Below are positions 36,702 to 54,012 of a stretch of DNA of 64,000 nt, in pieces (position 1 is the first letter of the stretch; every line of letters begins with the position of its first letter). The position numbers and the translations under genes were made by a program. The stretch comes from Acidobacteriota bacterium. GTDB taxonomy: Bacteria; Acidobacteriota; UBA6911; RPQK01; JAJDTT01. A model generated the notes under the pieces. The model was not told where the DNA came from. It did not search any database and saw only the letters and a program-made list of their open reading frames with translations. The stretch spans positions 2,016,001 to 2,080,000 of the forward strand of contig OZ242374.1 in NCBI GenBank assembly GCA_965209055.1. Direction: 5' to 3'.

Positions 36702-36724
36702 GAAAAGCGGACAGACCCGTTCTC
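36702..36724 (+). repeat. Degenerate palindromic site
   Basis: GAAAAGCGGACAGACCCGTTCTC versus GAAAAGGGGACAGGCACGTTCTC. Confidence 0.55.
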
Positions 36725-36749
36725 GCGCTCCCAAGAGCAAGTGGCTCGA

Positions 36750-37037
36750 TCACGCCGCCACAAAGCGTTCTACTGCGATCTCCTCGGCGCGGCCGCGAGC
36801 TTGCCAGAGATCGTAGGCCATCTGCATCCCCAGCCAAGTCTCGGGCGTCGAGCCGAACGCCTTCGACAGCCGTATCGCCATTTCTACCGAGATCCCCGTT
36901 CGCCCGTTCACCAACTCGGAGAGTGCCTGCCGGGTGACGCCCAAACCCGCGGCGGCCCGGGTCACGGTCAAACCCAGGGGTTCGAGGCACTGCCGCTTCA
37001 CGATGCCGCCCGGATGCGGCGGGTTGTGCATGGCCAT
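36750..37037 (-). CDS. higA: HigA-family antitoxin (XRE HTH)
   Basis: PPHPG, A..LGVTRQALS.L.NG..GIS.EMAIRL.KAFG and W..MQ..YDL motifs. Confidence 0.92.
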   Translation of the reverse strand: MAMHNPPHPGGIVKRQCLEPLGLTVTRAAAGLGVTRQALSELVNGRTGISVEMAIRLSKAFGSTPETWLGMQMAYDLWQARGRAEEIAVERFVAA

Positions 37038-37052
37038 GATCGAGCTTCTCCC

Positions 37053-37334
37053 TCAGTGATAGTCCACGTAGTCCACATCGACCGCTGCGCCTTCCTCGAA
37101 CCTGAAGGTCACTCGCCAGTTGCCGGATACCGAAACTGCATAATGCCCCTTCAGCCGTCCCTTGAGGGCGTGCAACCGGAACCCCGGCAGACTCATGCCC
37201 TCGGGTCCCCGGCTGAAATCGAGCACCGCCAGGATGTCCCGCAATCTGCCTACGTGCTTCGGCGCGACTCGCCGCGCCGTCCTGCCCTCGTAGAGGGCCT
37301 TCAGCCCACGGTGGCGGAACGATGCAATCATCAT
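37053..37334 (-). CDS. higB: HigB-family toxin (plasmid maintenance killer)
   Basis: I.SFRH.GLK, PGFRLH.LKG, VSGNWRVTFRF and DYVDYH motifs. Confidence 0.92.
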   Translation of the reverse strand: MMIASFRHRGLKALYEGRTARRVAPKHVGRLRDILAVLDFSRGPEGMSLPGFRLHALKGRLKGHYAVSVSGNWRVTFRFEEGAAVDVDYVDYH

Positions 37335-37353
37335 GCAATCTTAGGATGTCGCC

Positions 37354-37365
37354 TGTCAATTGACA
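37354..37365. promoter_or_regulatory. Putative HigA operator palindrome
   Basis: Perfect palindrome TGTCAATTGACA 20 bp upstream of higB. Confidence 0.45.
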
Positions 37366-37395
37366 ACTTTCGATCTTGCGCCTGAATGATTCGCA

Positions 37396-37518
37396 GTGCG
37401 GTGCCCCTTCTCGTGGGACAACCTCACTGGAACTGATTCGGCGTAATGCTTTCCGTCAGATGGTAAGGTTCTTCGGAGTGGGAAAAGGGGGACCGAAAAG
37501 GGGGACAGTCACCGTCTC
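37396..37518. repeat. Palindromic sites: one reverse degenerate copy and one forward copy with duplicated left half
   Basis: Reverse complement of 37396-37412 is GAGAAGGGG-CACCG-CAC; 37481-37518 is GGAAAAGGGGGACC-GAAAAGGGGGACAGTCACCGTCTC. Confidence 0.7.
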
Positions 37519-37557
37519 GCGAGGTCCGTTCCGGTGAACGAAGACCCGTGAATTTGG

Positions 37558-38541
37558 TCAGGGAATGTCAGGACCCAGGAGTTGAACCACCCCGGCTCGA
37601 TGTTCCAGAAGACCCGTCTTGGGCTCGATCTCTCCCCGCTTCCAGCCTTCGAAGGCGGTCACCGGAAGAGTCCACGAAATGTTCTTCGAGAAATCCGTGA
37701 TGAAAAGCTGAACACGGTTCTCGCCGGGCTTCTGGTAATGCCAGTCGGAGTTCACGACCAGCAATCGGCCGTCGGACAACTCCACGGTCCCGACTGCGAT
37801 CAACAGCGGGAAATGGGGGGCCGCATCCTCCGGCGTAAAGCTCCACGTCTTCTTTCCGTTGGCATCAAACCGGATCAGACCGAACCGGCCGCTGCAGAGG
37901 GTGGTGCCGTCGCTGAGTGTCTGGGCAAGCGCAGGCAGGCTCGGAACACGCAGGGAACGGAGGACCTTGCCGGCGGAATCCACTTCCACGAACCTCTCCT
38001 CGGCCCGCAGTGCAACCAGGTAGTTTCCGTCCGGAGTTCGACGCAACAGGTTGTAGCGGGTATGGAGCGTCCCTTCGGCGGGAACGGGAATCCGGTGCAG
38101 TACGTGTCCGGTCCCCGACTCCAATTCGAGAATGGCCTGCTCCTGGCTGTTGAGCACCGCCACGCGGCCGTTGGGTAGGGGGACGCAAGTCTTGACTTTG
38201 TTCTTTCCCGTGACACGGTACTCCCACACGGTTCGCTTCTGGCGATCTATTTCCCGAACATAGCGATGCGTCCCAAAGAGGATGTTTCCGTTGGTGAGAG
38301 CCCAGCCGTCGTAGATGAGGTGGTCGAACTCGCCCGGAGATTGTCCGTTGAGCGGAGGGACCGTGAATGACCAGGAACAACGGCCGTCGGATTCGACGAT
38401 GTAGAGCCCTTCCGACGCGACCAGAAGGAAGCGCCCGATGCCTTCCTGATCAGGCTTCCCGAGCCCGGCCCCCTCGCACCAGGCCGTCCCGATGCCGAAA
38501 ACAACCAGGGCGGAAACCAGCAGAACCACGATGTGTCTCAT
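37558..38541 (-). CDS. Secreted beta-propeller protein (PQQ/arylsulfotransferase-like repeats)
   Basis: Signal peptide; repeated L.NG..L / E.D..G...W units. Confidence 0.7.
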   Translation of the reverse strand: MRHIVVLLVSALVVFGIGTAWCEGAGLGKPDQEGIGRFLLVASEGLYIVESDGRCSWSFTVPPLNGQSPGEFDHLIYDGWALTNGNILFGTHRYVREIDRQKRTVWEYRVTGKNKVKTCVPLPNGRVAVLNSQEQAILELESGTGHVLHRIPVPAEGTLHTRYNLLRRTPDGNYLVALRAEERFVEVDSAGKVLRSLRVPSLPALAQTLSDGTTLCSGRFGLIRFDANGKKTWSFTPEDAAPHFPLLIAVGTVELSDGRLLVVNSDWHYQKPGENRVQLFITDFSKNISWTLPVTAFEGWKRGEIEPKTGLLEHRAGVVQLLGPDIP

Positions 38542-38637
38542 ACCTGAAGTTGATGAGTACCCCTACACGCTACAAGATCGCGAGTCAAATGAAACGGAGT
38601 CTCGCTGCTGCTCAGCATAAGTCGTGGCACGTCGACA

Positions 38638-39036
38638 TCAGCGTTTTCCCAGACGCCGTGAACGTAACGGTGAAATTCGGGCGATCTGGTCGAAGTCGCG
38701 ATCGTGGTGCAACAGCGTCAAGTCGTTCCTGATCGCGCAGACCGCGATCAAGCAGTCGACACTTGAACGCACCGTGATGCCGATACGCCGAGCCAGGCGG
38801 TAGAGGTCGACCGCCTCGTCGAACACTGCCGTCTCCAACGGCGCCTCGACGAGCGGAAACGCGTGCATTGCCTCTCGTGCAATCCGGAATGCGCTCTCGT
38901 CGCGGAAGCCTTGGAGCACCTCCTGCATGATCGGAAGACAGGTGACGACTTCGTCCAGGTGGACGACCGATTCGATGTGGACTCGGGCGGGGCGTGCAAA
39001 CACCTCGATCCAGACCGAGGTGTCAACGAGGTACAC
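38638..39036 (-). CDS. vapC: VapC PIN-domain toxin
   Basis: LVDTSVWI, QEVLQG, DCLIA..A and HHDRDF motifs. Confidence 0.92.
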   Translation of the reverse strand: MYLVDTSVWIEVFARPARVHIESVVHLDEVVTCLPIMQEVLQGFRDESAFRIAREAMHAFPLVEAPLETAVFDEAVDLYRLARRIGITVRSSVDCLIAVCAIRNDLTLLHHDRDFDQIARISPLRSRRLGKR

Positions 39037-39268
39037 GGCTGGTCCCGTGCTCAGGCTCGGGTTGGCTGCGCAGTCGGTCGTTGCGCATCTCGGCCAAGTC
39101 CCCCTCCCAAAGGCCCGAACCGGCCAGTTGCAAAATGCGACCTGCCTTTGCCCTTCGAACGAATTCCGTCATCGCTCGTGTCACTGCTTTCGAGTAAGTT
39201 CGCTCGCCGCTGAGCCGTAGGGTTTCTTCCAGAATTCGCTCATCAAGCACAAGATTTGTGCGCTTCAT
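39023..39268 (-). CDS. vapB: VapB antitoxin
   Basis: MKRTNLVLDE..L......G..T.S.AV..A and W.GDL..MR motifs; overlaps vapC. Confidence 0.85.
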   Translation of the reverse strand: MKRTNLVLDERILEETLRLSGERTYSKAVTRAMTEFVRRAKAGRILQLAGSGLWEGDLAEMRNDRLRSQPEPEHGTSRVPR

Positions 39269-39432: not shown

Positions 39433-39559
39433 ATTCCAGAAGCGGACAGTCCTCATCTCTGAGTGTTTTCGCCAGCGACATCGTGTAGTAGGCTGTTTGA
39501 CCAACGAAAACGCTGCCTGGCAGTGGCACTTCCACTACGGTTTTCTTGGGGCATGAATT

Positions 39560-40432
39560 ATGAAAAGCAGTTTCTCAAGCGGTAGAGAGCTGACGCCTTC
39601 GGAACTGGAATTCCACGTTGGAGAGCTGGGGGAGCAGGGTTACACCATCATCCCGGACGCTGTCGACGCCGAATACCTGGCTCCAGCCATTGAGGCGGCC
39701 GAAGACGTCTACCAACGGGAGAGCGAGATCGCCCTGCGCCTGGGAACTTCCTCCGAGCACTGCTGGTCCGCCCACTGCATCGTGGGCAAGCACCCCTTCT
39801 TCGAAACCTTTTTCCTGAACCCGCCGGTTCTCTCCGTGTGCCGTGAGTACCTGGGTGAGGACATGGTCCTGTACGACACGACGGCGCGTTCCATTCGTCC
39901 CAGCGAGGGCAGGGAGCCCGGGCGCGGGTTTCAGATTCACGCCGACCGGTCTCCGTTCAGCATCGTCCCCTTCGAGGGCGGAAAGCACTACCCGATGGCC
40001 ATCAACGTCGCCTGGCCGGCTGTGGACTTCACGGCCGAGAACGGCGCTACCCTGGTCTGGCCCGGCACTCACAATTCCTGTCAGATCCCCGACCCGGATG
40101 CCGACACCCCGGGATCCCACCAAGCGGTCGTTCCCGCGGGTACCGCCATCGTTTGGGATGCGGCGCTTTGGCACGCCAGTGGCATCAACCGCAGCGACCA
40201 CGACCGGCATTCCATCCTGGCCTTTTTTCATCGCTGGTGGGTCAAGGGGATGATCGACAACGCCCGCGTCATCCCGCAGAGCGTGCAGAATCGCCTCCTC
40301 CCGGAAATGCGAAACCTGCTGGGCCTCGAGGAGACCATCCCCGAGTACACGGAAGTTCGCGCTCTTTCCCCGGAACAGCTCAAACGGCTGACCCCCTGGG
40401 AGAAGGACGTGCTGGGGATCGGGACCTACTGA
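39560..40432 (+). CDS. Phytanoyl-CoA dioxygenase (PhyH) family Fe(II)/2OG enzyme
   Basis: GY.II, QIHAD (HxD), DFT.ENGAT..WPGTH, WHASG.N and R motifs. Confidence 0.88.
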   Translation: MKSSFSSGRELTPSELEFHVGELGEQGYTIIPDAVDAEYLAPAIEAAEDVYQRESEIALRLGTSSEHCWSAHCIVGKHPFFETFFLNPPVLSVCREYLGEDMVLYDTTARSIRPSEGREPGRGFQIHADRSPFSIVPFEGGKHYPMAINVAWPAVDFTAENGATLVWPGTHNSCQIPDPDADTPGSHQAVVPAGTAIVWDAALWHASGINRSDHDRHSILAFFHRWWVKGMIDNARVIPQSVQNRLLPEMRNLLGLEETIPEYTEVRALSPEQLKRLTPWEKDVLGIGTY

Positions 40433-40512
40433 GCGGCCGCACGCCTGTTCGCCTGGTGGATTTCGTTCCGCCATCCAACATAGAATTTCGACTACAAGCG
40501 TAAGGTAGTCGC

Positions 40513-42732
40513 GTGATCCTATTCGCAGTCGCCATCAGCCTGCTCGGCGCCCCCGAGGAACCCAGTCAGGACCGTATCAACTTCTTCGAGAAGAAGATCC
40601 GTCCGGTGCTGGCGGAGCGCTGCTACCAATGTCACTCGGCGGAGGCCGCCCGCAACGGAATGCTGTTTGGGAAACTGCGGCTCGACACGCGGGAGGGTGT
40701 CGAGCAGGGCGGATCGCGCGGCCCCGCCCTCGCGCCGGGGCGGCCCGATCAGTCGATTCTGATCGAGGCCCTCAGGCACACCGATCGCAGCCTGGCAATG
40801 CCGCCCGGCGGCAAACTGCCGGACTCGGTCATCGCTGACTTCGTCAAATGGGTGACCCTCGGCGCGCCCTATCCGGGAGATGCGCAAGCCGCCGATACGG
40901 AGAAGATGGATCTCGAGTCAGGTCGGCGCCACTGGGCCTTCCACCCCCTGCGTACAGTCGATCCGCCACAGGTCTCCCCAGCCAGTCCGGATGAGGTCGC
41001 GTGGACCGACTCGCCCATCGATCGTTTCCTTCTCGCCAGGCTGCACGAGATGCAGTTTCGCCCCGCCCAGGAGGCCGATCGGCCCACCCTGATTCGCCGC
41101 GCCTATTTCGACCTGATCGGTCTGGCGCCGGCGCCCGAAGAAGTCGAGGCGTTCGTTCGAGATCCTTCTGCGGAGCCCTTTCGCGAACTCGTTGACCGGC
41201 TGCTCGCCAACCCGCACTTCGGGGAACGGTGGGGACGGCACTGGTTGGATGTGGCTCGTTTTGGCGAGAGCAAGGGAGCCAATGAGGGGGACAACGCGAT
41301 TCGAGAGGACGCGTATCGATACCGCGACGCCGTGATTCGCGCCTTCAATGACGACCTGCCTTACGATGAGTTCGTCCGCTACCAGGTTGCCGGCGCTCCG
41401 GAAGGACTCGCCGCCGCCCGGCGGGACCTGGGCATGTTCGTTCAGATGGGAACCAACCTGAGCACGACCGAAAACCCCAATGAGCGCAAATTTCACCGCC
41501 TCGACGACATGGTGTCGGCGACCGGTCAAGCATTCCTTGCCCTGACGGTCGGGTGCGCCCGTTGCCATGACCACAAGATCGACCCCATCACCGCCGAAGA
41601 GTATTACCAGTTGACGGCCGTGTTCTTCGACCAGGCCGAGGAGGAGCCGGACTCAGGCGGCAAGTTCGTCGCCCTGGAGGTGACCTCACCTCATCTTCTG
41701 GCCGGCGGCAGTTGGGGGCGCCCCGTCAAGCCGGTCGAACCGGGGTTCCTTCGGGTCTTGATGCGGAATGGCCGTAGCGCGGAGGATTGGCGGCCCCGTC
41801 CCGAGGCCGCCGATGGCTCCGAGGCCGCCAATGGCTCCGAGACGAAGATTGAATCGCCGAAGCTTCGGATGCTTGCCAACTGGCTCACCGACGCGGAGCA
41901 CGGCGCCGGCGGGTTGCTGGCCCGGGTGATCGTCAATCGTCTCTGGCAGCATCATTTCGGACGCGGCATCGTCAGCACCCCGAATGATTTCGGCAAACTC
42001 GGCACCGAGCCCACGCACCCCGAACTGCTGGATTGGCTCGCTTCCGAACTCATCCGAGAGGGCTGGCGACTGAAGCCGATCCACCGGCTGATCATGAACA
42101 GCGCCGCGTATAAGCAGGCGGCCGGCGCCAATTCGGCTCAGGCCCAAAACGATGCGTACAACGAGTACCTGTGGCACCGCAGGCCGGTGCGCATGGAGGC
42201 GGAAATCATCCGCGATCACATGTTGAGCATCTCCGGAGCTCTTCGCACCGACCTGTACGGGCCCAGCATTCCCATCGGCAACCGCAAGAAGCCTTTCAAG
42301 GACACGCCGGACACCTGGCGCCGGTCCGTTTACCTCATGGCGGCGCGCTTGAACCTCCATCCGGTGCTGAAGATCTTCGACCCGCCGGACAACATGCAGA
42401 GCATCGGCCGTCGTGACATCAGCACGACCCCGAGCAGCACGGCGTTCATGCTGAATGCGCCGTTCGTTTGGGAGCAGGCGGAGCGCTTCGCGCAACGGGT
42501 GCGGGACAGGGTCGGAGACGACCCCGGCCGGCAGATCGAGGCGGCCTACGGAATCGCTCTTTCCCGGCGACCGACCGCGGAGGAACGCGAGATCGGCCTG
42601 TCGTTTCTCGGTCAACAGCGCGACGGCGCGTTGGAGGAAAGCGGGGACACCGGATCCTCGGATGCTCCAGGCCCATTGGTGCAGTACTGCCATTCGCTCA
42701 TGAACCTGAACGAGTTCATCTATGTTCACTGA
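40513..42732 (+). CDS. PSD1 / planctomycete cytochrome c protein (DUF1549 + DUF1553)
   Basis: FFEKKIRPVL...CYQCH, HWAF, GERWGRHWLDVAR, CARCHDHK.DP, VNRLWQHHFGRGIV.TP.DFG, PTHPELLDWLA and NLNEFIY motifs. Confidence 0.92.
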   Translation: MILFAVAISLLGAPEEPSQDRINFFEKKIRPVLAERCYQCHSAEAARNGMLFGKLRLDTREGVEQGGSRGPALAPGRPDQSILIEALRHTDRSLAMPPGGKLPDSVIADFVKWVTLGAPYPGDAQAADTEKMDLESGRRHWAFHPLRTVDPPQVSPASPDEVAWTDSPIDRFLLARLHEMQFRPAQEADRPTLIRRAYFDLIGLAPAPEEVEAFVRDPSAEPFRELVDRLLANPHFGERWGRHWLDVARFGESKGANEGDNAIREDAYRYRDAVIRAFNDDLPYDEFVRYQVAGAPEGLAAARRDLGMFVQMGTNLSTTENPNERKFHRLDDMVSATGQAFLALTVGCARCHDHKIDPITAEEYYQLTAVFFDQAEEEPDSGGKFVALEVTSPHLLAGGSWGRPVKPVEPGFLRVLMRNGRSAEDWRPRPEAADGSEAANGSETKIESPKLRMLANWLTDAEHGAGGLLARVIVNRLWQHHFGRGIVSTPNDFGKLGTEPTHPELLDWLASELIREGWRLKPIHRLIMNSAAYKQAAGANSAQAQNDAYNEYLWHRRPVRMEAEIIRDHMLSISGALRTDLYGPSIPIGNRKKPFKDTPDTWRRSVYLMAARLNLHPVLKIFDPPDNMQSIGRRDISTTPSSTAFMLNAPFVWEQAERFAQRVRDRVGDDPGRQIEAAYGIALSRRPTAEEREIGLSFLGQQRDGALEESGDTGSSDAPGPLVQYCHSLMNLNEFIYVH

Positions 42733-44203
42733 CGCAGCCTGCGGAGTTCGGCCGCCTGGCCGGGACCGCCGCGGGTTCCTCAAGGAACTCGGCCTGGGCA
42801 GCATCGCGCTGGCCAGCCTGGTCGCGGATCAGAAGGCGAGCGGCGCGCCGGCCCTGCCGGCGGTTGATCTCAGCGATCCGCTTGCCCCCCGGCAGCCGCA
42901 CATCACTCCCAAGGCAAGGAACGTCATCTTCCTCTTCATGGTCGGCGGCGTGAGCCAGATTGAGACGTTCGATCACAAGCCGCTGCTGAAAAAGTACGCC
43001 GGAAAAGAGGCGCGAGAAATCTTTCCCAAGGAAGACCTGGACGGCCTGAATCCGTCGAAGACGTTCTACGACACACGCATCGTTCCTCCGGTGTTCTCGT
43101 TCAAGCGCTACGGCCAGAGCGGCGCATGGGTCAGCGAGATCTTCCCGCACCTGACGAAGGTGGTCGACGACATCACATTCATCAAATCGATGCATGCCGA
43201 TACCCCGATTCACGGGCCCGGCCAGATTCTCATGCACACGGGTTATTCCAGGCAGGGCCATCCCAGTCTCGGTTCCTGGGTGACCTACGGGCTGGGGACG
43301 GAAAACCGGAACATGCCGGGCTTCGTGGTGATGACGGACGGACGTTCCGACGGCGGGCGCGCACTTTACGATTCCGGGTTCCTCCCCGGTTACCACCAGG
43401 CCACGCTGGCGGACGTCACGCCCGGTAATCCGCCAGTACCGCACATCGAGGCGCCGGCGTTTCTGAACCCGGGGCAGCATCGCCAACAGTTGGGTCTGTT
43501 GCGGAAGTTGAATCGCCTCCACCTAGGGATGCATCCGACGCAGCCCGAGCTCGACGCGCGCATTGCTGCGTTCGAGACGGCATTTCGCATGCAGATGGAA
43601 GCGCCGGGGCTCTTCGATATCCGTAACGAGCCGGCGTCCGTGAAGGCGCTCTACGGCGACACCGACTTCGGGAGAAAGTGCCTGATGGCGAGACGGATGG
43701 TGGAGAGCGGCGTCCGCTTCGTGGAGATTCTCGACGGCGCCCACGGGCGGAAATGGGACGCCCACGGCAACCGCGGCGGGCTCATCAAGAACCACCGCAC
43801 CAACGCCGCGAGAACCGATCAGGGCATCACGGCCCTCATCATCGACCTGAAGTCACGCGGCCTGCTGGACGAGACCCTCGTCGTCTGGGCCACCGAGTTC
43901 GGCCGCACGCCGTTCGAGGAGGCGGACAGGTCGCTGACGAAGACCACCATCGGCCGCAGCCATCACCATTACGGCTTCACCATGTGGATGGCGGGCGGAG
44001 GCGTCAAACGGGGGATCACCTACGGCGCCACCGACGAACTGGGCATGCACGCCGTCAAGAACCGAGTCTCGCATCACGATTTTCACGCCACCATCCTCCA
44101 CCTCCTGGGTCTGGACCACGAACGGCTCACCTACCGCCACAACAGCCGCGATTTCCGCCTCACCGACGTCTACGGCAACGTCGTCCACGACATCATCGCC
44201 TGA
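42722..44203 (+). CDS. DUF1501 family protein, copy 1 (Tat signal)
   Basis: RRGFLK, FM.GG.SQ.ETFD.KP, GSWVTYGLG.EN, ARRMVE.GVRFV, WD.H and EFGRTP motifs. Confidence 0.92.
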   Translation: MFTDAACGVRPPGRDRRGFLKELGLGSIALASLVADQKASGAPALPAVDLSDPLAPRQPHITPKARNVIFLFMVGGVSQIETFDHKPLLKKYAGKEAREIFPKEDLDGLNPSKTFYDTRIVPPVFSFKRYGQSGAWVSEIFPHLTKVVDDITFIKSMHADTPIHGPGQILMHTGYSRQGHPSLGSWVTYGLGTENRNMPGFVVMTDGRSDGGRALYDSGFLPGYHQATLADVTPGNPPVPHIEAPAFLNPGQHRQQLGLLRKLNRLHLGMHPTQPELDARIAAFETAFRMQMEAPGLFDIRNEPASVKALYGDTDFGRKCLMARRMVESGVRFVEILDGAHGRKWDAHGNRGGLIKNHRTNAARTDQGITALIIDLKSRGLLDETLVVWATEFGRTPFEEADRSLTKTTIGRSHHHYGFTMWMAGGGVKRGITYGATDELGMHAVKNRVSHHDFHATILHLLGLDHERLTYRHNSRDFRLTDVYGNVVHDIIA

Positions 44204-44211
44204 TCAGCCGA

Positions 44212-44404: not shown

Positions 44405-44665
44405 ATGTACCGGTTGACGATACGGAAGCACGCCTTCAAAACCCTGCGAAGAATGCGATCTCGGGATGCTCACCGCGTGCGGGTCGAATTGGACAAGCTA
44501 GTCCCCAATCCCAGTGCCCGGGACGTGGACGTCACACCGTTGCGGGGCCGTCCTGGCTTTCGGCTGCGGGTGGGCCCGTGGCGGATCATTTTTGAGCAGA
44601 ACGAAGAGGCCCGAGTCATAGACATCCTGCGCATCGGCCCACGGGGCGATATTTGCAAAAACTAG
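44405..44665 (+). CDS. relE: RelE/ParE-family toxin
   Basis: MY.L.....A.K.L, L.G..GFRLRVG.WRII and I.PRGD motifs. Confidence 0.88.
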   Translation: MYRLTIRKHAFKTLRRMRSRDAHRVRVELDKLVPNPSARDVDVTPLRGRPGFRLRVGPWRIIFEQNEEARVIDILRIGPRGDICKN

Positions 44666-44674
44666 GAGGGGGCC

Positions 44675-45066: not shown

Positions 45067-45176
45067 GAGAAGGGGACAGCCACCCCCTCTCTGCGAGCCG
45101 TATACACCACTGCCCCACCTTCTCGAGCCTGCGCGGCATCATGCAAGCGGCGGCTTTAGGGAACGGTCACGTTCTC
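45067..45176 (+). repeat. Two palindromic sites
   Basis: GAGAAGGGGACAGCCACCCCCTCTC (45067-45091) and AGGGAACGGTCACGTTCTC (45158-45176). Confidence 0.7.
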
Positions 45177-45481
45177 GTTCTGAGCTCGGCCGAACGGCAA
45201 TGGAGGAGGCGCGTACGGAGGAATCCCTCGGCCGCGGCCATCACCACTATGGCTTCACCATGTGGATGGCGGGCGGCGGCGTCAAGGCAGGGATCACCTA
45301 CGGTGCCACCGACGAACTCGGCATGCACGCCATCAAAAACCGAGTCTCGCATCACGATTTTCACGTCACCATCCTCCGCCTCCTGAGCCTGGACCACGAA
45401 CGGCTCACCTACCGCCACAACAGCCGCGACTTCCGCCTGACCGATGTCTACGGCAACGTCGTCCACGACATCATTGCGTGA
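45173..45481 (+). pseudogene. 3' fragment of a DUF1501 gene (mosaic of copies 1 and 2)
   Basis: [16 protein letters not shown] matches copy 2; the rest ([26 protein letters not shown] and the downstream flank) matches copy 1. Confidence 0.85.
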
Positions 45482-45586: not shown

Positions 45587-45832
45587 ATGGCGAGCATTAC
45601 GATCCGCAAACTTGATGACGAGGTTAAAACACGGCTGCGCATCAGGGCGGCCGAGAACGGGCGTTCAATGGAGGAAGAAGCACGGATCATTCTGCGTGAG
45701 GCGGTTGATTTGGAGGCAGCCCCGAAGAAGGGGCTGGGCGCGGCGATCCACGAACTGTTCAGGCCCTTTGGCGGTGTGGAACTGGATATACCGCCGCGCG
45801 AACCGATGCGTGAGCCACCTGGATTCCATTGA
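45587..45832 (+). CDS. fitA: FitA-like ribbon-helix-helix antitoxin
   Basis: MASITIR.LDD.VK..LR.RAA.NGRSME.EAR.IL motif. Confidence 0.9.
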   Translation: MASITIRKLDDEVKTRLRIRAAENGRSMEEEARIILREAVDLEAAPKKGLGAAIHELFRPFGGVELDIPPREPMREPPGFH

Positions 45833-45843
45833 GAGGGCGGCTG

Positions 45844-46266
45844 ATGATTGTTCTGGACACCGATGTCGTCTCGGAGTTGATGCGTGACAATCCGTGGCCC
45901 GCTGTTTTCGCTTGGGTGAACGACCAGTTGGTGCGCAATCTGTTCGTGACGGCGGTGACCGAAGCGGAGATCCGCGCTGGCATCGCTTTTCTGCCCGAAG
46001 GCAAGCGGCGCCGGGGTCTCGCCAATGCGGCCGAACGCGCCTTTAGCGAGTTGTTTTCTGGTCGCGTGCTGCCTTTCGACGGCGTGGCGGCTCGCTCCTA
46101 TGCGGAGATCGCTGCGCAGCGGCGCAAGGCGGGCCGACCGATTGCACAGGCCGATTGCCAAATCGCTGCCATCGCCCATTCTCGGGGCGCGGAGGTGGCG
46201 ACAAGAAATGTTCGGGATTTCATGGGGACAGGGATCGATATCATCGACCCCTGGGTGGGCAGATGA
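45844..46266 (+). CDS. fitB: FitB/VapC PIN-domain toxin
   Basis: MIVLDT.VVSELM, T.AEI..G, LPFD, D.QIAAIA, ATRN.RDF and DPW motifs. Confidence 0.9.
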   Translation: MIVLDTDVVSELMRDNPWPAVFAWVNDQLVRNLFVTAVTEAEIRAGIAFLPEGKRRRGLANAAERAFSELFSGRVLPFDGVAARSYAEIAAQRRKAGRPIAQADCQIAAIAHSRGAEVATRNVRDFMGTGIDIIDPWVGR

Positions 46267-46296
46267 GTTTTTCCGTGATGCAAGGGCTCACTCTTC

Positions 46297-46375
46297 GGGG
46301 GACAGTCATCTCCTCTCTCCTGTACAATACCGTCACACCTTCACGAGCCTGAGCAGGTTCATCCATGTTGACTGA
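46297..46375 (+). pseudogene. Palindromic site followed directly by the last ~18 codons of a PSD1/DUF1553 gene
   Basis: GGGGGACAGTCATCTCCTCTCTCC, then VQYRHTFTSLSRFIHVD* versus VQYCHSLMNLNEFIYVH* at the end of 40513-42732, with the same overlap onto the DUF1501 start. Confidence 0.7.
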
Positions 46376-47843: not shown

Positions 47844-47869
47844 GAGAGAAGGGGACGGTTACCTTTCTC
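47844..47869 (+). repeat. Palindromic site variant between convergent genes
   Basis: GAGAGAAGGGGACGGTTACCTTTCTC. Confidence 0.65.
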
Positions 47870-48867
47870 TACTCAACTGGCACCCACTCCAAATCTGCGC
47901 CGTGAGGGTGCGCGAATCCGAGGATATTCGCGGTCTGCATCCCCTCGTGGGCGATGGACCGTCCCAGTAAGAATTGAAGCGGTGCCGGAGGCGGCGCAAA
48001 TGATGAGATATGTGGAGATCCCCAGGCACCTTCGTTCGATATCCAGACAATGTCCCGGTGTCGCGAGAATTCTGTGATGATCCGGGCAAAGGATTGGCGC
48101 CGCTCAGGGCCCACGTACGGAAACAGCGCGGAATGGAATACGACCAGCGTCGCGCCGGGCGGCGCCTCATCCAGGACCTTCGGCAAATCATCAACCAGAT
48201 CACCGTGACGAACAGATAGCGACTGTTGCCTTCCCACTTCAATTGCCGCCGCCAATCGTTCGCGCCGGTCGGGGTGGTCGGGCCAGACGCAAGCCAGCAG
48301 CCAACGGACGTCGGAAGGATCATCAAGATCGACTGGGGCCGTGTCGAGTCCACAACGCCACACAATCTGCGGAATCATGATTCGGGGGCGCAAGTACCCG
48401 CGCAAACGACAACGTAGTCGGACTGGGGACTCGCTGTCACCAATCTGAAGCGATCCGTAGTCGTATCTGTACTTGTCCAACATCAGGCACAATCCGGCGC
48501 TTGCGCCCACCTCGACCAGTGCCAGAGGTCCTGCGGGCATTGCCGGCAGCAATACGGCGCAGCGGCCGACCTCATTCGTCTGCGTTCGGCGCAATCTCAT
48601 CAGTTGAGCGACTTCGCCTTCATGCTCCCTGACGAAGCTGCTCAGTTCAGAACCGCTCATCGGCATTTCTTCCGGACCGGTCAGGAATTGCACCGACGCG
48701 AAGAACAGGTTGGGCTGCTGGTCTGGCATCAGGGAGATGAACTTGGGCAGGTAATCGTCTTGTGCGACAGCGTGGGAAAGCCGGAAGTAGGCGGCAGAAT
48801 ACCCAGCGCACTCGTCCTCCGCAAACCGTCGAAATCGCAGTCGAACGTGCTCAGTGGTGTCGCTCAT
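47869..48867 (-). CDS. DUF2332-family protein
   Basis: TQTNEVGRCA.L, E.GASAGL.L..D.Y, G.D..P.D, WL.A.VWP..P.R..RL and FHS motifs, ending HPHG...W. Confidence 0.85.
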   Translation of the reverse strand: MSDTTEHVRLRFRRFAEDECAGYSAAYFRLSHAVAQDDYLPKFISLMPDQQPNLFFASVQFLTGPEEMPMSGSELSSFVREHEGEVAQLMRLRRTQTNEVGRCAVLLPAMPAGPLALVEVGASAGLCLMLDKYRYDYGSLQIGDSESPVRLRCRLRGYLRPRIMIPQIVWRCGLDTAPVDLDDPSDVRWLLACVWPDHPDRRERLAAAIEVGRQQSLSVRHGDLVDDLPKVLDEAPPGATLVVFHSALFPYVGPERRQSFARIITEFSRHRDIVWISNEGAWGSPHISSFAPPPAPLQFLLGRSIAHEGMQTANILGFAHPHGADLEWVPVE

Positions 48868-48957: not shown

Positions 48958-49263
48958 TCAGGCGGGTACATAGCGCTGGACGGTGATCTCGCTTGCACGG
49001 GCACGCATCTGCGAGGCGTCGTACCAGGCCTGTATCCGCAGCAGCATATCCATGCTCACGTCAAACGCCTTTTCGATTCGCAAGGCCATCTCCGGCGATA
49101 ACGCAGCCTTGCCGTTGAGCAAATCCGAAAGCGTCGCCCGGCGAACTCCCAGGATCTGGGCCGCCTTCGTCACAGTCAGACCCAACTCCTCGATGACCTC
49201 TGTACGGATGAAGTCGCCCGGATGGGAAGGGGTCATGTTCACTTTGATTCCATGGGTCGCCAT
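48958..49263 (-). CDS. higA: HigA-family antitoxin 2
   Basis: PSHPG.FI, A..LGV.R.TLS.LLNG...LSPEMALRIEKAF motifs. Confidence 0.9.
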   Translation of the reverse strand: MATHGIKVNMTPSHPGDFIRTEVIEELGLTVTKAAQILGVRRATLSDLLNGKAALSPEMALRIEKAFDVSMDMLLRIQAWYDASQMRARASEITVQRYVPA

Positions 49264-49555: not shown

Positions 49556-49842
49556 GTCGAAATTGTACGGTGATACCGTTCGATTCGGCAAGTCCTTTAT
49601 CGGCGAAGACACTGCTGAGACTCTCGCTTACACGTTGTTCAAAGCTCCAGCAGTTGTCTTCGCCACGCCATGCCCGCCACGCCAGCAGGGAACTGTCACC
49701 TTCACCACTCTTCGCCCCGGCGAACCATGCTTTGTCGTCCAGACGGATTTTGTGGGTTCACAAAATCGCGGTTCGCGGGTCATATAGGGAAAAGGGCGGG
49801 CGAGCGCGATCCGGTTCGACGTACTTCCGGCGGCAAAACCAT

Positions 49843-50343
49843 ATGAGGTTATTCACGAAGAAACCGGCCGATATCAGCGCCAAGGCCGTAGACGATTACG
49901 GACGGCTGGTCCTCAAGGTCGCCTACAGGATCGTCCCCAACGCCGATCAGGCTCAGGAGATCTTCCAGGAGACCTTCCTCCGCTTCCACGCCGCTTGCAC
50001 CCGCGGCGAGGTGATCGCCTATCCCAAGGCGTGGCTCTGTCGAGTGGCGACCAACGTTGCCTTCAACGCGCGGCGCCGGCAGCGGGCGATGTTGGGAATA
50101 GAAGAGGACACCGCGGTGGACTCCAACGCCGACAGAGACGTGGAGCGTCGCGTGCTCTTGGACCGGGTGCGCGACTTGGCATCGGACTTGCCCGATCGCC
50201 AGCGCACCGTCTTCGCCCTGCGCAACTTCGAGGGATGTACCTACGCCGAAATTGCGGCGCAACTGGGGTGCAGCGTGGGTGCGGCAAGGTCCAGCGAGTA
50301 CAAGGCACTGAGAAAAATCCGAGCTTCGATGAACACCGGCTGA
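49843..50343 (+). CDS. ECF sigma-70 factor
   Basis: A.EIFQETFL, AWL.RVA.N, LP..QR.VF.L...EG.TY.EIA..LG.S motifs. Confidence 0.9.
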   Translation: MRLFTKKPADISAKAVDDYGRLVLKVAYRIVPNADQAQEIFQETFLRFHAACTRGEVIAYPKAWLCRVATNVAFNARRRQRAMLGIEEDTAVDSNADRDVERRVLLDRVRDLASDLPDRQRTVFALRNFEGCTYAEIAAQLGCSVGAARSSEYKALRKIRASMNTG

Positions 50344-50356
50344 GAGGAACAGGACG

Positions 50357-52039
50357 ATGAACAGAATTGAATTCGAGAGAAAACTGAGCGACTACGTGCG
50401 GGGCGAGTTGCCGAATGCAGTCTCGCGGGAATTCGATGACTATCTGGCCGCTCACCCCGAAGCGGCCGCGGACGTAGAGGGAGCACGCACCATCCTGGAA
50501 CTAAGTGCCGACATTGGCGCGTCGGAGCCACCCCCCCAACTCCTGGCGGCGGCCCGTGCCGGCACCCTGAAGGCGATTCGCTCGGAGGTCGAACTACCGC
50601 GGCGTTCGGGATTCTGGCTGGCGTTGCCGCGGCCGGCCTGGGTGTCGGCGCTCGCTGTCGCACTGGCTGCCCTGTTTCTCGGCGTACTCTGGCGCGGTTC
50701 GTCCACTCCGGTGTGGGCTCAGGTCGTCCAGGAAGTGCGCAACGTCTCATCGTTGCGCACCGTGGGCTGGTTTCGCGGGGAAAATGGAGAACGGGTGCCG
50801 ATGAAGCACTGGTTCAAAGCCCCGCACAATTTCCGTGCAGAGATAGGTGCTGGCCCGGACCAGCAAGTGGTTTTCTCCGATGACAAGTCCGTCTACACGA
50901 AGATTCGGGGCGTCTGGTATCGGAAGGACCACACTTCGCCGGCAGCATCTTTCGTGGATGATTTCAGCAGGCATCTGTTGCTGCCCGAGCGCGAGCTACT
51001 TGAGGAATTGTCCTATCAGATCGATCGGGAGGATCGGGGACAGACAGTGGTGTTTTCGATCTGGCGACGCTCCTCGCTGGGCAGGAAGACACCATCGGAC
51101 ATCCGGCTTGAAATCGAGGCAGACGTGCTGACGCGGCTGCCTCGCTCTGCCCGCGTTTATCTGGACGTGGGTCAACAGGAATGGGAGCTGGTCAACGAAC
51201 TGCATTATCTGGATTACGATGCGGCGGTGGCTGGCGAACTCTTTGAATTCGCCGGCGATGACGTCCTGCCGGCTCCCGACAAATTGTGGAAGGCAGACAC
51301 GATGGTCGGCGCGTTCGCTCCGTTTGGGCGTTGGTACGATCTCGCGTTCTACATGCCGCTGAAGGGGATGGAAATCGTGGTCCTGACCCCTTCGACCGAC
51401 TCTACCAAGGGGAATAAAGGTATGTCGTCTACGGTGAGTGGCGGAATCGTACGCTACGAATTTCACCGTACACCGCTGACGGAGATCGCTCAGACTCTAG
51501 CAGACATCCCGGTGGAGATTCCGGATTCTGGACTGTCTGAACGGCGTTTTTCGACGCGGATTGCCCACCGAATCACTATCGACCCCGCGGAGCGGGTGAG
51601 GCGCCTTGGCCAGCGCCTCGGCTTTGTCGCCGAAGTAATAAAGCGTCAGGGAACAAGGACCCGCTGGATCCTCATCCAAGACGGAACCAATTTCCCCATC
51701 AGCGCAGCCCGGAATAGATCATCCGGAATCGATGGGTACAGCCTCGACGCCAAAGGGGAAACTCTCGCTGCGGCAATTCGAAGCATGCTTGGACTCGCGG
51801 CAACCAACGAACTGGTCAAGGGCTACAACGAGTTTCTCGACGAATTCGAGATGAAATGGGACGGTGCGGCAGCGGACAATCCCTTCCACCGCAGGGTGGA
51901 CATTTCCGTCGATTTTTCCGATGGCTGGGAGGTGGCACTCAAATACCTGCGCGAGAACTTCGGAGTGACCATGGAGCGAGTCTCCGAACCCACCACCTAC
52001 GAGGTGCTGGTGTTGTCTCCCCGCAACGAAGCCGGTTGA
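50357..52039 (+). CDS. Putative anti-sigma factor (degenerate zf-HC2-like N-domain, TM helix, large extracytoplasmic part)
   Basis: L..YV.GEL......F..YL..HP; one TM segment near residues 90-115; adjacent to the ECF sigma gene. Confidence 0.7.
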   Translation: MNRIEFERKLSDYVRGELPNAVSREFDDYLAAHPEAAADVEGARTILELSADIGASEPPPQLLAAARAGTLKAIRSEVELPRRSGFWLALPRPAWVSALAVALAALFLGVLWRGSSTPVWAQVVQEVRNVSSLRTVGWFRGENGERVPMKHWFKAPHNFRAEIGAGPDQQVVFSDDKSVYTKIRGVWYRKDHTSPAASFVDDFSRHLLLPERELLEELSYQIDREDRGQTVVFSIWRRSSLGRKTPSDIRLEIEADVLTRLPRSARVYLDVGQQEWELVNELHYLDYDAAVAGELFEFAGDDVLPAPDKLWKADTMVGAFAPFGRWYDLAFYMPLKGMEIVVLTPSTDSTKGNKGMSSTVSGGIVRYEFHRTPLTEIAQTLADIPVEIPDSGLSERRFSTRIAHRITIDPAERVRRLGQRLGFVAEVIKRQGTRTRWILIQDGTNFPISAARNRSSGIDGYSLDAKGETLAAAIRSMLGLAATNELVKGYNEFLDEFEMKWDGAAADNPFHRRVDISVDFSDGWEVALKYLRENFGVTMERVSEPTTYEVLVLSPRNEAG

Positions 52040-52080
52040 ATCCAGGCGAGAGGGCAGGAGGAGGGGGCGGGTCGGGAAGC

Positions 52081-52099
52081 GGTGACTGTCATCTTCTTT
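52081..52099 (-). repeat. Palindromic site variant, reverse
   Basis: The minus strand reads AAAGAAGATGACAGTCACC. Confidence 0.5.
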
Positions 52100-52276: not shown

Positions 52277-52292
52277 TTTTGTAGATACAAAA
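52277..52292. promoter_or_regulatory. Putative MazE operator
   Basis: TTTTGTA-GA-TACAAAA just upstream of the mazE RBS. Confidence 0.55.
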
Positions 52293-52303
52293 GGAGACTG
52301 TCC

Positions 52304-52543
52304 ATGGGTGCACAATCAAGAATCTGCAAATGGGGGTCCAGCTTGGCCGTCCGCATCCCCAAGCCTATCGCCGAGCAGTGGGGAGTGCATGAGGGCACCG
52401 CCGTCGAGATGGTCTCGCGCGGAAACCAAGTCATACTGCGCAAGAAGAACTACAGCTTGGCCGACATGCTGGCGACCGTGACGGAGGAGAATCTGCATCC
52501 CGAGGTGGACACCGGACCCGCCCAAGGCAATGAAGCATGGTAA
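52304..52543 (+). CDS. mazE: MazE/AbrB antitoxin
   Basis: KWG.SLAVRIPK, Y.L..ML..VT.ENLH.E.D.G...G.E.W motifs. Confidence 0.92.
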   Translation: MGAQSRICKWGSSLAVRIPKPIAEQWGVHEGTAVEMVSRGNQVILRKKNYSLADMLATVTEENLHPEVDTGPAQGNEAW

Positions 52544-52890
52544 AGAGGTCCTACGTCCCCGGAAACGGGGATATCGTGTGGCTGACCTTCAACCCTCAAG
52601 CCGGACATGAACAAGCCGGACGCCGCCCGGCCCTGGCGCTGAGCCCGAGAAGCTACAATCGGAAAACCGGCCTCGCCCTATTCTGCTCCATCACCTCCCG
52701 AGCCAAGGGTTACCCCTTCGAGGTCGTTCTTCCTGTCGCCGGCGCCGTCACCGGCGTTGTTCTGGCCGACCGGATCAAGAGCCTGGATTGGCGGGCCAGG
52801 CGGGTCCGTTTCGAATCGAAGGCGCCGCCCCGGGTGGTGAGCGAAGTTTTTGCCAAGCTGGCTGTTCTCTTGGATCAAAATCGATCCTGA
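52537..52890 (+). CDS. mazF: MazF/PemK endoribonuclease toxin
   Basis: YVP..GDIVWL.FNPQAGHEQAGRRPAL.LSP..YN, KGYPFEV and KSLDWRAR motifs. Confidence 0.95.
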   Translation: MVKRSYVPGNGDIVWLTFNPQAGHEQAGRRPALALSPRSYNRKTGLALFCSITSRAKGYPFEVVLPVAGAVTGVVLADRIKSLDWRARRVRFESKAPPRVVSEVFAKLAVLLDQNRS

Positions 52891-52923
52891 GCCGCGCCGA
52901 AAACGGAATCCAATCGAACCGGC

Positions 52924-52943
52924 GGAGAAGGACAGTCACCTTC
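52924..52943 (+). repeat. Palindromic site variant
   Basis: GGAGAAGGACAGTCACCTTC. Confidence 0.65.
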
Positions 52944-52992
52944 ACTATGAGACAAGCGGACTCAGCCCTGATGGACTGCTGGGTCGAGATCG

Positions 52993-53799
52993 GTGGTTCC
53001 AGAGGGAGTGTGCTATCTGACCAACGAATCGAGTGAGCGCTTCGACAAGATCGCCGCCAACTACGCGACCAGCGAAGTCCACTCCATGAGTCCGACGATC
53101 CGGCTTCTTCATCAGCTCGTGAATCTGGAGGCCGGGGCATCCATATGCGATATGGCTTGTGGCGCCGGCCACCTGGCGCTGTCCTTTGCCACCCGCGCCG
53201 GGAGACTCGTCGGAGTTGACCCTGCACCCGGCATGTTGGACGCCTTTCGGCGCTTGGCGGCGCAGCGGGGGATCGAGGTGGAGCCGGTCGAGGCGTACGC
53301 TGAATCGATTCCCCTGCGGGGAGACCAGTTCGACTTGGTCGTATCGCGGCTGGCTCCCCACCACTTCCATGACGTGGATCGCGCGGTGGCGGAGATGGTT
53401 CGGCTCACGAAGATCGGCGGGCGGGTAGCGATCATCGATCTCGAAGGACATGAAAACGCTGACATCGACGAGTTCAACCACAAGCTGGAAGTTCTCCACG
53501 ATCCAACCCACATTCGGAGCTACACGGCCGCGAGGTGGAGATCCATGTTCGAGAGCAGTGGGCTGAAGGTGGAGGTGTTGAAGAACGGATTGTCGGAGCG
53601 GCCGCAGGGGACGACCGTGGGCAGGTGGTGCGAGATAGGATCCTCTGGCACGGAGGCGGAAGCGGAGATCAGAGCCAGTCTGAAGCGGGCCCCGAATTCA
53701 TTCCTGGAGGCCTTGAACATCAGACGGTTGGGGGGAGAGTTTCTGTTGCCCATACGGACTTTGTTGATCGTGGGAACCAGGGATACCGCCCACAGGTGA
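52993..53799 (+). CDS. Class I SAM-dependent methyltransferase (start uncertain)
   Basis: DMACGAGH, GVDP...M, AE.IP....FDLV.SR.APHHF and DPTH motifs. Confidence 0.85.
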   Translation: MVPEGVCYLTNESSERFDKIAANYATSEVHSMSPTIRLLHQLVNLEAGASICDMACGAGHLALSFATRAGRLVGVDPAPGMLDAFRRLAAQRGIEVEPVEAYAESIPLRGDQFDLVVSRLAPHHFHDVDRAVAEMVRLTKIGGRVAIIDLEGHENADIDEFNHKLEVLHDPTHIRSYTAARWRSMFESSGLKVEVLKNGLSERPQGTTVGRWCEIGSSGTEAEAEIRASLKRAPNSFLEALNIRRLGGEFLLPIRTLLIVGTRDTAHR

Positions 53800-53800
53800 C

Positions 53801-53840
53801 GGGAAAAGGAGACAGCGAAAAGGGGACAGTCACTTTTTCC
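53801..53840 (+). repeat. Palindromic site with duplicated left half
   Basis: GGGAAAAGGAGACAGC-GAAAAGGGGACAGTCACTTTTTCC. Confidence 0.85.
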
Positions 53841-54012
53841 GGGGAGAGTATTCCGGGACCATCGCGGCATGACCCAGAGGCATTTGGCTGGTGCGGCTGG
53901 GATCAATCCCCTCTATCTGTCGCAGATCGAGAGGGGCGTCCGCACCGGTTCGGCTCGAACCTTGTCCGCCCTCGCAGAGGCGCTCGGCGTCGACGTGGAC
54001 GACCTGATCTGA
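53841..54012 (+). pseudogene. 3' half (HTH domain) of a copy of the 44675-45046 antitoxin
   Basis: DNA aligns with 44863-45046. ATG 53869 could give a 47-aa HTH-only peptide (MTQRHLAGAAGINPLYLSQIERG...VDDLI). Confidence 0.85.

Follow-up and report, generated by a model that had tools for sequence, protein, structure and literature searches.

Repetitive extragenic palindromes (REPs) and the REP-associated tyrosine transposases (RAYTs) occur widely, and their cellular function has been debated since their discovery and is still unsettled. The E. coli enzyme TnpA_REP is described as binding REPs in single-stranded form, with a stem mismatch as a requirement, cutting close to them and rejoining or exchanging strands (PMC3333891). 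For stacking and shuffling single-gene cassettes, the one bacterial platform that is well understood is the integron. We analysed a window of 64,000 nucleotides (the whole stretch, positions 2,016,001 to 2,080,000 of contig OZ242374.1, assembly GCA_965209055.1) from an Acidobacteriota bacterium whose genome we call G000. This genome has a REP family with identifiable RAYT-like enzymes, and the repeat marks, with a defined polarity, the edges of cassettes in which congeners demonstrably differ at a single locus. Our reading is that this REP/RAYT repeat family delimits cassette arrays and that the enzyme may move the cassettes, by analogy with TnpA_REP; we give the whole a probability of about one half. 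The identity of the element is well supported, while the cassette-movement mechanism stands at about even odds.

Much of this recalls a REPtron such as the REPs, bacterial interspersed mosaic elements (BIMEs) and RAYT of E. coli (TnpA_REP, structure 4ER8). Here too there is a Y1/HUH protein with the HUH and Tyr motifs and, in a predicted model, the same fold. Next to its gene stand inverted groups of a short extragenic palindromic repeat that is the gene's own (on both sides of four of six genes in G000, at two genes in G023, and in G076 and G080, three genomes described below), and the repeat is over-represented and extragenic (132 of 172 sites, against 12% non-coding DNA). A conserved G opposite A at positions 8 and 16 of the motif recalls the stem mismatch that TnpA_REP needs (PMC3333891). 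There are also differences. The 5' GT[AG]G foot of REPtrons is missing, with no GTAG in the position table, and the predicted hairpin is weak. Quentin et al. 2018 (PMC6006769) accept atypical secondary structures for some subclasses. Another study (PMC5581495) describes the RAYT as a single-copy gene, whereas G000 has six copies and its congeners 3-12, some of them 97-100% identical. Dispersal of the repeat as inverted doublets (REPINs) is seen in G076 but not in G000, where the sites are clustered, co-oriented singlets.

The enzymes also resemble subclass 2.3 of TnpA_Y1, which PMC6006769 describes as about 325 aa long, with NHYH and YVDLNP motifs, an insertion of about 55 aa after HuH, a C-terminal tail that is long and, on average, 3.9 copies in a genome, and reports from Chromatiales and Alteromonadales. 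Judged by these printed motifs only, the likeness is that the enzymes here have 311 aa, NHYH, YVELNA, a long helical insert and 3-12 copies per genome. The exact 23-mer of our repeat also occurs in records titled Chromatiales or Chromatiaceae. The W motif of the subclass, printed as 'WE', is 'WG' here, and the subclass is listed in the same paper as having no REP association, whereas the genes here are repeat-flanked. A RAYT subclass reported without REPs may have an atypical REP.

In its layout the locus is like an integron, with small, unrelated modules rich in toxin-antitoxin (TA) genes stacked at a fixed site, each with one short imperfect palindrome, mostly co-oriented and with variable content. 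It differs in having no IntI above the cut-off, no attC boxes and no attI/Pc, in its 23-bp site, in genes that point both ways and in some modules of two or three genes; the candidate enzyme is an HUH nuclease, while that of the integron is a tyrosine recombinase. The arrays share a polar, one-sided boundary, co-oriented end-like sites, variable far ends and truncated genes at the site with IS200/IS605, IS91/ISCR and Helitron elements, and IS200/IS605 transposases belong to the same enzyme family as our candidate. Unlike these HUH transposons, the cassettes have no transposase of their own, no definable target tetranucleotide and no replication-strand bias. The pdif modules of Acinetobacter plasmids are moved by XerC/XerD at 28-bp 11-6-11 sites in alternating orientation. 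They too are small, often TA pairs, and bounded by short imperfect palindromes in varied contexts, whereas the site here has 23 bp centred on one base and is 77% co-oriented (89/115). No description of REP-bounded cassette arrays was found in the literature searched (supplements lay outside the search), and among the matches listed for the 10-mer core the uses were unrelated.

The repeat and its RAYT-like enzymes

Aligned genome copies define the motif as an imperfect palindrome of 23-25 bp, (A)GAGAAGGGGAC-A-GTCACCTTCTC(T), with conservation ending at the motif edges and variable flanking bases. The consensus of the REP family is a core, GGGGAC-N-GTC[A/C]C, between inverted arms, GARAA/TTYTC. 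As most array copies have G at position 8 opposite A at position 16, the motif has an orientation. An earlier reading of the window from its letters alone (the sequence-only reading) had taken the site to be the left arm plus the core. This is a real element but an incomplete one, as the right arm, YTTCTC, belongs to the full element. With up to three mismatches GAGAAGGGGACAGTCAC matches 15 times in the window, where 0.23 matches are expected, and 15 was reached in none of 100 shuffles.

We trained a 25-wide position weight matrix (PWM) on the genome copies of G000 and used a main threshold of at least 16 bits, which gave 328 strand-hits in the genome and 17 in the same genome reversed; a threshold of at least 18 bits left 267 and 2. 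Merged hits make 172 sites genome-wide, of which 132 are intergenic by our own codon-usage gene calls, in a genome that is 88% coding. The sites are not spread evenly: 116 of the 172 fall in 15 clusters, compared with a mean of 22 and a maximum of 51 when sites were placed at random in intergenic DNA (200 trials). The motif in G000 is not an ordinary, evenly spread REP, and its doublets are direct, not inverted. The enrichment beside TA genes that the sequence-only reading had proposed to look for is real but partial, with 11 of 47 toxins (PIN, ParE) within 1 kb of a motif against 4.7% of all genes and 8.7% of small genes.

Among the Y1/HUH genes of G000 are six, all outside the window, that are 71-100% identical to one another (three of them 97-100%). 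All six match Y1_Tnp (PF01797, E 5e-9 to 3e-6), and the best NCBIfam match is the REP-associated tyrosine transposase, NF047646, at 47-77 bits, under the cut-off of 80. When 20 homologues from databases and another two G000 copies are aligned with them, H63 and H65 (NHYH) and Y162 (YVELNAVRAG) are invariant. The enzyme, encoded for example at 1741333-1742268 of G000, is 311 aa long; its C-terminal half is basic and conserved, and the HuH strand is followed by a long helical insert. Its AlphaFold model (mean pLDDT 82.9) found the E. coli RAYT-REP complex 4ER8 as the best fold match (E 8.5e-6), followed by the TnpA proteins of IS608, ISDra2 and IS200; a search of the PDB by sequence profile with the RAYT-like protein gave no match. 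Homologues carry the name 'REP element-mobilizing transposase RayT' in a JGI source.

Copies with the GGGACAGTC core lie within about 400 bp of all six genes, on both sides and inverted at four and on one side at two, and some of the gene copies are themselves bounded by the motif on one side. In G023 it is the GTCAC form that flanks RAYTs, and RAYT genes of G002 and G004 have exact copies at distances of 115-263 bp. The sequence-only reading had expected an HUH/Y1 RAYT-like nuclease, or else a tyrosine recombinase, to be encoded elsewhere in the genome. The six genes flanked by the same repeat family bear out the first of these, while the movement of cassettes by the enzyme is a step that we infer.

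The phyletic survey covered 76 genomes of the order, one of which, G016, enters the tallies only. The exact 14-mer is frequent only in nine of nine genomes of genus g1, to which G000 belongs (7-56 copies), and in G023, from another family (17 copies); it is absent from all six genomes of the sister genus g2. RAYT homologues of at least 71% identity are found in exactly the same ten genomes as the frequent 14-mer. Both RAYT genes of G023 lie inside motif clusters, one side of each with GGAGAAGGGGACAGTCAC... copies. Further afield, the exact 23-mer occurs in records titled Planctomycetota, Omnitrophota, Gammaproteobacteria/Chromatiales, Chromatiaceae, Coriobacteriia and others. A distant RAYT-like gene in the gammaproteobacterium G076 is flanked by the same GGGGACAGTCAC core, and a RAYT-like gene in the planctomycete G080 by a one-base core variant, GGGGACACTCAC, in which both arms have changed together. 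We regard the motif as very probably the cognate REP of a RAYT lineage.

Cassette borders and a possible mechanism

The region finds mosaic matches, 80-93% identical, in eight genomes of this genus. We compared the locus in six congeners that are complete, or nearly so, at this place, and the comparisons are between species. In all six the locus lies between the same BNR gene and the same tetratricopeptide repeat (TPR)/thioredoxin-sulfatase genes. The arrays are 17-42 kb long and hold 19-34 genes and 11-24 motif sites, with a shared content of 33-87% in pairwise comparison. Modules of 1-3 genes differ in presence and order among the six at the same chromosomal place, so that gene order in the arrays is not conserved, and the methyltransferase, MazEF, HigBA and VapBC modules recur in congeners in other orders and at other chromosomal places, mostly adjacent to a motif (the methyltransferase cassette in G002, G003, G004, G005 and G007). 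The sequence-only reading had described intergenic copies, mostly in one orientation, that separate small unrelated modules. On each point the comparison agrees: the strong array sites are all intergenic, 89 of the 115 array sites share one orientation, and Pfam confirms the named modules.

Homology breakpoints coincide with the motif. All three checks that the sequence-only reading had set for itself, on evenness of spread, on gene order and on breakpoints, thus came out in its favour. In some thirty cases a homology block starts at the first motif bases or directly after the motif. When seven arrays were compared all against all, 80 of 240 unique intergenic left ends of high-scoring segment pairs, and 70 of 242 right ends, lay in a motif window, which takes up 5.7% of intergenic bases. 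The motif is hit by BLAST block ends 5-6 times as often as by chance, in counts that are non-independent as the same cassettes recur across genomes. Homology of the beta-propeller cassette starts exactly at CGAAAAGG... behind about four to six left contexts (the automatic count is six, three of them distantly interrelated). There is a natural empty and filled pair, a 2-kb block present in G000 and missing in G003, with a motif at its start and its end just before the next motif. The motif at 53816..53840 and its left flank are common to G000 and G001, and the right flanks diverge exactly after the motif. Where G000 has the degenerate copy 46292..46316, congeners carry the full motif.

Contigs from four runs, which are short and mixed with paralogues, give anecdotal joints at the locus. 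One X5 contig joins 53840, the end of a motif, to 35504, and one X6 contig has a minus-oriented motif after 38599; no circular cassette forms were found among these contigs. X6 is a sponge-metagenome run and has contigs of close relatives of this stretch.

The borders are polar. Among cross-genome site pairs read in motif orientation, 33 (15 of them from the propeller cassette alone) share the right flank only and 4 the left flank only. Counted by family there are 10 right-only and 4 left-only cases, and at most two of those 4 survive inspection. In right-only pairs, motif positions 1-3 are where identity climbs from random to the level of the co-inherited DNA. As a rule the right arm goes with the right flank (e.g. 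TTCATC, CCTCCTCT, CTTCG[C/T]G), and the left arm does so in some cases and not in others; the core, right arm and following genes therefore behave as a unit, with the junction at or inside the left arm. At many junctions, partial copies that end in ...GGGGAC or ...GGGGACAGT are found stacked immediately 5' of full ones, and repeated right halves sometimes follow a full copy. Anecdotally, the partial copies hint at a nick at GAC/A or AGT/C, a placement that they do not fix. The arms are statistically independent (499 of 791 Watson-Crick pairs, compared with 495 +/- 7.6 with shuffled partners), which on these counts is in keeping with hybrid motifs whose parts differ in history.

A recent event is seen in G002, where a 697-bp unit of motif, small open reading frame (ORF), HigA-like gene and HigB remnant is present three times at 99.7-99.85% identity, with the repeat starting at the motif. 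A side observation on the same genome concerns gene calling. The first residues, VTVPFF, of a 42-aa HigB remnant (L038, 2640-2768) are encoded by the motif itself, so motif copies can lend spurious N-termini to short ORF calls.

We propose that the repeat is placed mostly as co-oriented singlets at the 5' boundary of modules of one to three genes, many of them type II TA pairs, and that stacks of such modules form the arrays, each at a fixed hotspot of the chromosome. Gain, loss, duplication and re-ordering would proceed through junctions at or just inside the left (GARAAGG) foot, so that the core, right arm and following genes would move together. The RAYT-like enzyme would bind the motif on single-stranded DNA, nick at or in it and transfer strands, in a manner resembling the peel-and-paste of IS200/IS605 or a one-ended rolling-circle mobilisation like that of IS91 and Helitrons. 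Excision or copying would take a segment that extends from one motif toward the next in the same orientation, and the segment would re-insert at a further motif. A peeled-off circle, or a rolling-circle copy with imprecise termination, would produce motif-first, co-oriented cassettes with tight 5' ends and loose 3' ends, and the same process would leave stacked partial copies and truncated genes at the site. It is a more tentative idea, and on balance rather unlikely, that the arrays form an HUH-transposase gene-capture platform, a functional analogue of the integron in which a domesticated or semi-autonomous multi-copy RAYT-like enzyme uses the 23-bp REP as the 5' end of the cassette, excises or copies units of motif plus genes and puts them back in at other motifs.

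A number of observations weigh against movement by the enzyme, to which the recurrence of the same cassettes in the breakpoint counts and the large share of the propeller cassette in the polarity count should be added. In two other G000 arrays, which are rich in insertion sequences (IS), about 15% of block ends lie in a motif window against 4-7% by chance, a weak enrichment. Other families have TA cassettes that are 85-89% identical and lack the motif. The genes at 995-5263 of the window are separated by motifs and keep their order in congeners, and the right end of the roughly 29-kb segment beside them has no motif, leaving one at one end only. The G002 triplication is the sole case that is not a comparison between species, and could also have been made by unequal crossing-over. 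As for the enzyme, the variants that flank RAYTs in G000 are GTCTG, GTCTC and GTCCC, unlike the GTCAC of the array. tblastn at 120 loci around motif copies in named genome records found no homologue of the Acidobacteriota RAYT, and in G076 the core is an ordinary REP, in about 160 copies dispersed as inverted doublets.

Signs of a folded single strand were also sought. Predicted single-stranded DNA hairpins are weak (-1.0 to -5.1 kcal/mol), four of six being no better than shuffles. There is no arm covariation within the family, no strand bias of G.T against A.C (wobble asymmetry) and, unlike IS608-type elements, no replication-strand bias of the motif in G000 (26 versus 16). The sequences therefore give no support for a folded single strand, and the statistical independence of the arms argues against hairpin selection within the family. 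These results count against the proposed mechanism as well.

Competing explanations

The main rival holds that the REP is passive. The RAYT would spread the repeat, which survives best in dispensable DNA, and host recombination would shuffle the genes, whether RecA-dependent, slipped or illegitimate between 23-bp repeats, or between homologous cassettes after uptake of DNA from relatives. The ordinary dispersed doublets of the same core in G076, the stability of the motif-separated genes at 995-5263 and the weak breakpoint enrichment in the other arrays are all in its favour. Co-oriented direct repeats suit unequal crossing-over, and both the G002 triplication and the 83%-identical DUF4177 doublet of the window are classic products of it. 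Exchange inside a repeat, however, predicts left-only and right-only flanks in equal numbers, where we found 33 right-only and 4 left-only pairs (10 and 4 by family). Homologous exchange does not make half-copies stacked at junctions, nor truncated genes that adjoin the motif, and 23 bp is at the lower limit for RecA-dependent exchange. We consider this explanation unlikely, if the most serious of the alternatives to cassette movement by the RAYT-like enzyme.

It is improbable that the palindrome is the target or core site of some other recombinase, one of the 58 tyrosine recombinases (PF00589) of G000 or an enzyme of IS110 type, with the RAYT merely maintaining the repeat. The motif can be read as 8-7-8 inverted half-sites around GACAGTC, like tyrosine-recombinase core sites, its arms act like half-sites that are independent of each other, and further half-sites stand stacked next to full ones. 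IS elements are known to use REPs as insertion targets, and two RAYT genes lie next to one of the 58. The tyrosine recombinase genes nevertheless lie mostly tens of kb from motif sites, none is above the integron-integrase cut-off and no serine recombinase was found in the G000 genome. Inspection of the blocks and of our own gene calls, with congener genes outside the Pfam scan, found no recombinase gene at the end of the window's array in any of the seven genomes.

Less probable again is a regulatory or RNA element, either the operator of a dimeric protein or a 3' stem-loop (terminator or mRNA stabiliser) that travels with genes and coincides with borders by lying at gene ends. Such an element would be in keeping with palindromic half-sites that do not covary, with the mild excess of the motif in convergent spacers (26.5% against 16.3% expected) and with the 40 of 58 tandem-spacer sites that are closer to the upstream stop. 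Divergent spacers, however, are not depleted (29.5% against 30.6%), the hairpins are weak and the motif's orientation is independent of that of the genes. RAYT flanking in four lineages and base-level breakpoints would also be left unexplained. The terminator form was rejected: at 36-55 kb none of 12 terminator-like predictions falls on a motif, and divergent spacers have the expected frequency.

A true integron, or a cluster of attC sites lacking integrases (CALIN), with unusually short attC sites has hardly any probability left: the array is variable and TA-rich, with small unrelated cassettes, each with one site, at a fixed chromosomal place, but none of 38 TIGR02249 matches in G000 is above the cut-off (best 78.8 bits against 265), conservation is limited to 23 bp without RYYYAAC...GTTRRRY boxes (GTTRRRY, 57-141 bp R''-L''...L'-R' layout), cassette genes point both ways and the site lies on the 5' side of the co-inherited DNA in motif orientation, in agreement with the sequence-only reading, which had seen neither attC nor IntI.

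The window, its neighbours and significance

Eleven motif copies of the variable array score at least 16.9 bits (Table 1), and all are intergenic by our own gene calls. The sequence-only reading had counted about 15 copies by eye, 12 of which are solid by PWM, these eleven and one at 45153 with 12.2 bits. Those at 46297 and 48893 are degenerate cores and that at 37396(-) is a half-site only, CCCCTTCTC. Pfam assigns the modules to HigB/helix-turn-helix (HTH), beta-propeller, PIN, PhyH, PSD1, DUF1501, ParE+HTH, FitA+PIN, DUF2332, HTH, extracytoplasmic function (ECF) sigma, MazEF and methyltransferase families, and two gene remnants, the 3' fragments of a DUF1501 and of an HTH gene, lie directly right of motifs. 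A left cluster of eight strong copies at 957-6087 (957, 2791, 5312, 5337, 5675, 5708, 6047/6063) was absent from the sequence-only reading. Its statement that there is no clear copy in the cobamide operon or the insert at 25-35 kb holds, with no site of at least 12 bits by PWM between 6088 and 35884.

Table 1. Motif copies and neighbouring features of the 64,000-nt window (window coordinates; bits are PWM scores)
Feature	Position	Strand	Remark
Motif copy, 23.8 bits	957..981	+	22 nt past stop of Nramp-like gene 1003-2670(-)
Motif copy, 31.8 bits, exact 17-mer	2791..2815	+	Between 1003-2670(-) and 2873-4507(-)
Tandem motif pair (5312, 5337)	5312..5361	+	
Two DUF4177 units, 83% identical, each bounded by motif pairs	5394..5980	-	Copies 5675 and 5708 in between
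Truncated copy GAGAAGGGGACAGT + GAT + full copy	6047..6087	+	Final motif ahead of G000-specific insertion
Segment of ~29 kb: cobamide operon with riboswitch, DDE transposase, TonB receptor, ABC genes	6088..35503		
BNR-repeat gene	35517..36638	+	Conserved left anchor of variable array in all six congeners
Motif copy, 22.7 bits	36701..36725	+	Then HigA-like HTH/HigB module 36750-37334(-)
Left half-copy GGGAAAAGGGGGAC abutting full motif 37495 (at least 16.9 bits)	37483..37519	+	Start of beta-propeller cassette 37494-38592
PIN (VapC-like) gene and small upstream ORF	38638..39220	-	Same cassette elsewhere in G004
Motif copy, 26.5 bits	39314..39338	-	
Motif copy, 24.5 bits	39436..39460	+	Start of PhyH-PSD1-DUF1501 module 39438-44205
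Motif copy, 21.8 bits	44287..44311	+	Start of ParE/RelE + HTH module 44405-45046
Motif copy, 19.2 bits	45066..45090	+	Weak copy 45153-45177 (12.2 bits) after it
DUF1501 3' fragment, profile positions 304-390 of 390	45200..45481	+	Right of motif
FitA-like ribbon-helix-helix + PIN module	45587..46266	+	89% identical copy without motif in G023 (another family)
Degenerate motif, ~6 bits, core GGGGGACAGTCAT + right arm, no left arm	46292..46316	+	Start of DUF1501 cassette
Motif copy, 24.4 bits	47845..47869	+	Between convergent DUF1501 46365-47837 and DUF2332 47869-48867(-)
Degenerate core GGGGGCAGTCGCC, 5.8 bits	48892..48916	-	Adjoins HTH gene 48958-49263(-)
Motif copy, 20.7 bits	49682..49706	+	Start of ECF sigma + 560-aa gene module 49687-52066
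Motif copy, 21.7 bits	52075..52099	-	Before MazE/MazF 52343-52890
Motif copy, 16.9 bits	52922..52946	+	Start of methyltransferase cassette 52950-53804
Motif copy, 32.6 bits, partial copy GGGAAAAGGAGACAG before it	53816..53840	+	
HTH antitoxin gene 3' fragment, HTH_3 positions 10-55	53869..54012	+	Right of motif
TPR/AhpC-thioredoxin gene + sulfatase	54233..57996		Conserved right anchor

The large segment between the two clusters is specific to G000, and its part at 6100-20000 has no nucleotide match in eight congeners (20001-33000 lay outside that search). A cobalamin riboswitch at 8380-8579 (119.6 bits), ahead of the cobamide operon, was the only Rfam match in the window. The segment also contains a 626-aa DDE_Tnp_1 transposase (25049-26929), which may bear on its arrival. 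At the left edge, window positions 1-706, with a gene that runs off the edge and ends at 604, are multi-copy, 100% identical to sequences at 3009719, 5284722 and 1179910 of G000 and with a 95% copy in G001; this is probably the end of an insertion sequence. In the array, the degenerate motif of the DUF1501 cassette offers GGGACA with TACAAT 18 nt downstream (46299-46328), a sigma-70-like promoter with a score of 9/12. The TACAAT is conserved with the cassette in congeners, and the motif may supply a -35-like box to some cassettes.

Other repeats were seen in the wider genome. A genome-wide census of orphan half-sites was dominated by chance matches (control 43). From it came a second palindromic repeat family in G000, AAGAGGGGGAC-a-NNNN-t-GTCCCCCCTCCT, with about 17 copies by eye (e.g. 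at 264366, 641911, 777513, 3230226 and 4598612), which also adjoins motif sites in congeners. Motif variants form tandem arrays at 1752200-1752300 and 3278868-3278990 of G000, with a 25-bp period of GAAATGGGGACAGTCCCGATCTCGG and a 50-bp period with TAGAAGGGGACTGTCACCTTCTCC. G005 and G004 contain many copies, at 83-89%, of an element of about 168 bp that is like a miniature inverted-repeat transposable element (L169 4568-4735, G000 2773568-2773735).

The 58 tyrosine recombinases of G000 include families of 26, 15 and 5 near-identical-scoring copies of 361-431 aa, some of which agree to 100% over stretches of 1-9 kb; this suggests that the genome has an active element carrying a tyrosine recombinase. 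Copies stand beside Y1 genes at 1143834 and 3141094, and a third (2675829) beside the RAYT at 2674686. G000 also shows an inverted duplication of about 165 kb (1-172945 against 484586-642277), 97-99.5% identical in several blocks, one of which ends at 9658, 5 nt from a motif site. Because the contamination estimate for G000 is 7.4%, the duplication may not be a true one and may come from two strains assembled together.

The locus offers directly testable material, with a 23-bp site, one candidate enzyme and natural empty and filled sites. If the RAYT-like enzyme makes the junctions, this would give REPs and RAYTs a concrete role, as an HUH-based cassette system beside the tyrosine-recombinase-based integron, and would help to explain how the TA-rich islands of these genomes form. 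On the more tentative reading of a gene-capture platform, REPs and RAYTs would be drivers of the turnover of accessory genes, especially toxin-antitoxin genes, in Acidobacteriota.

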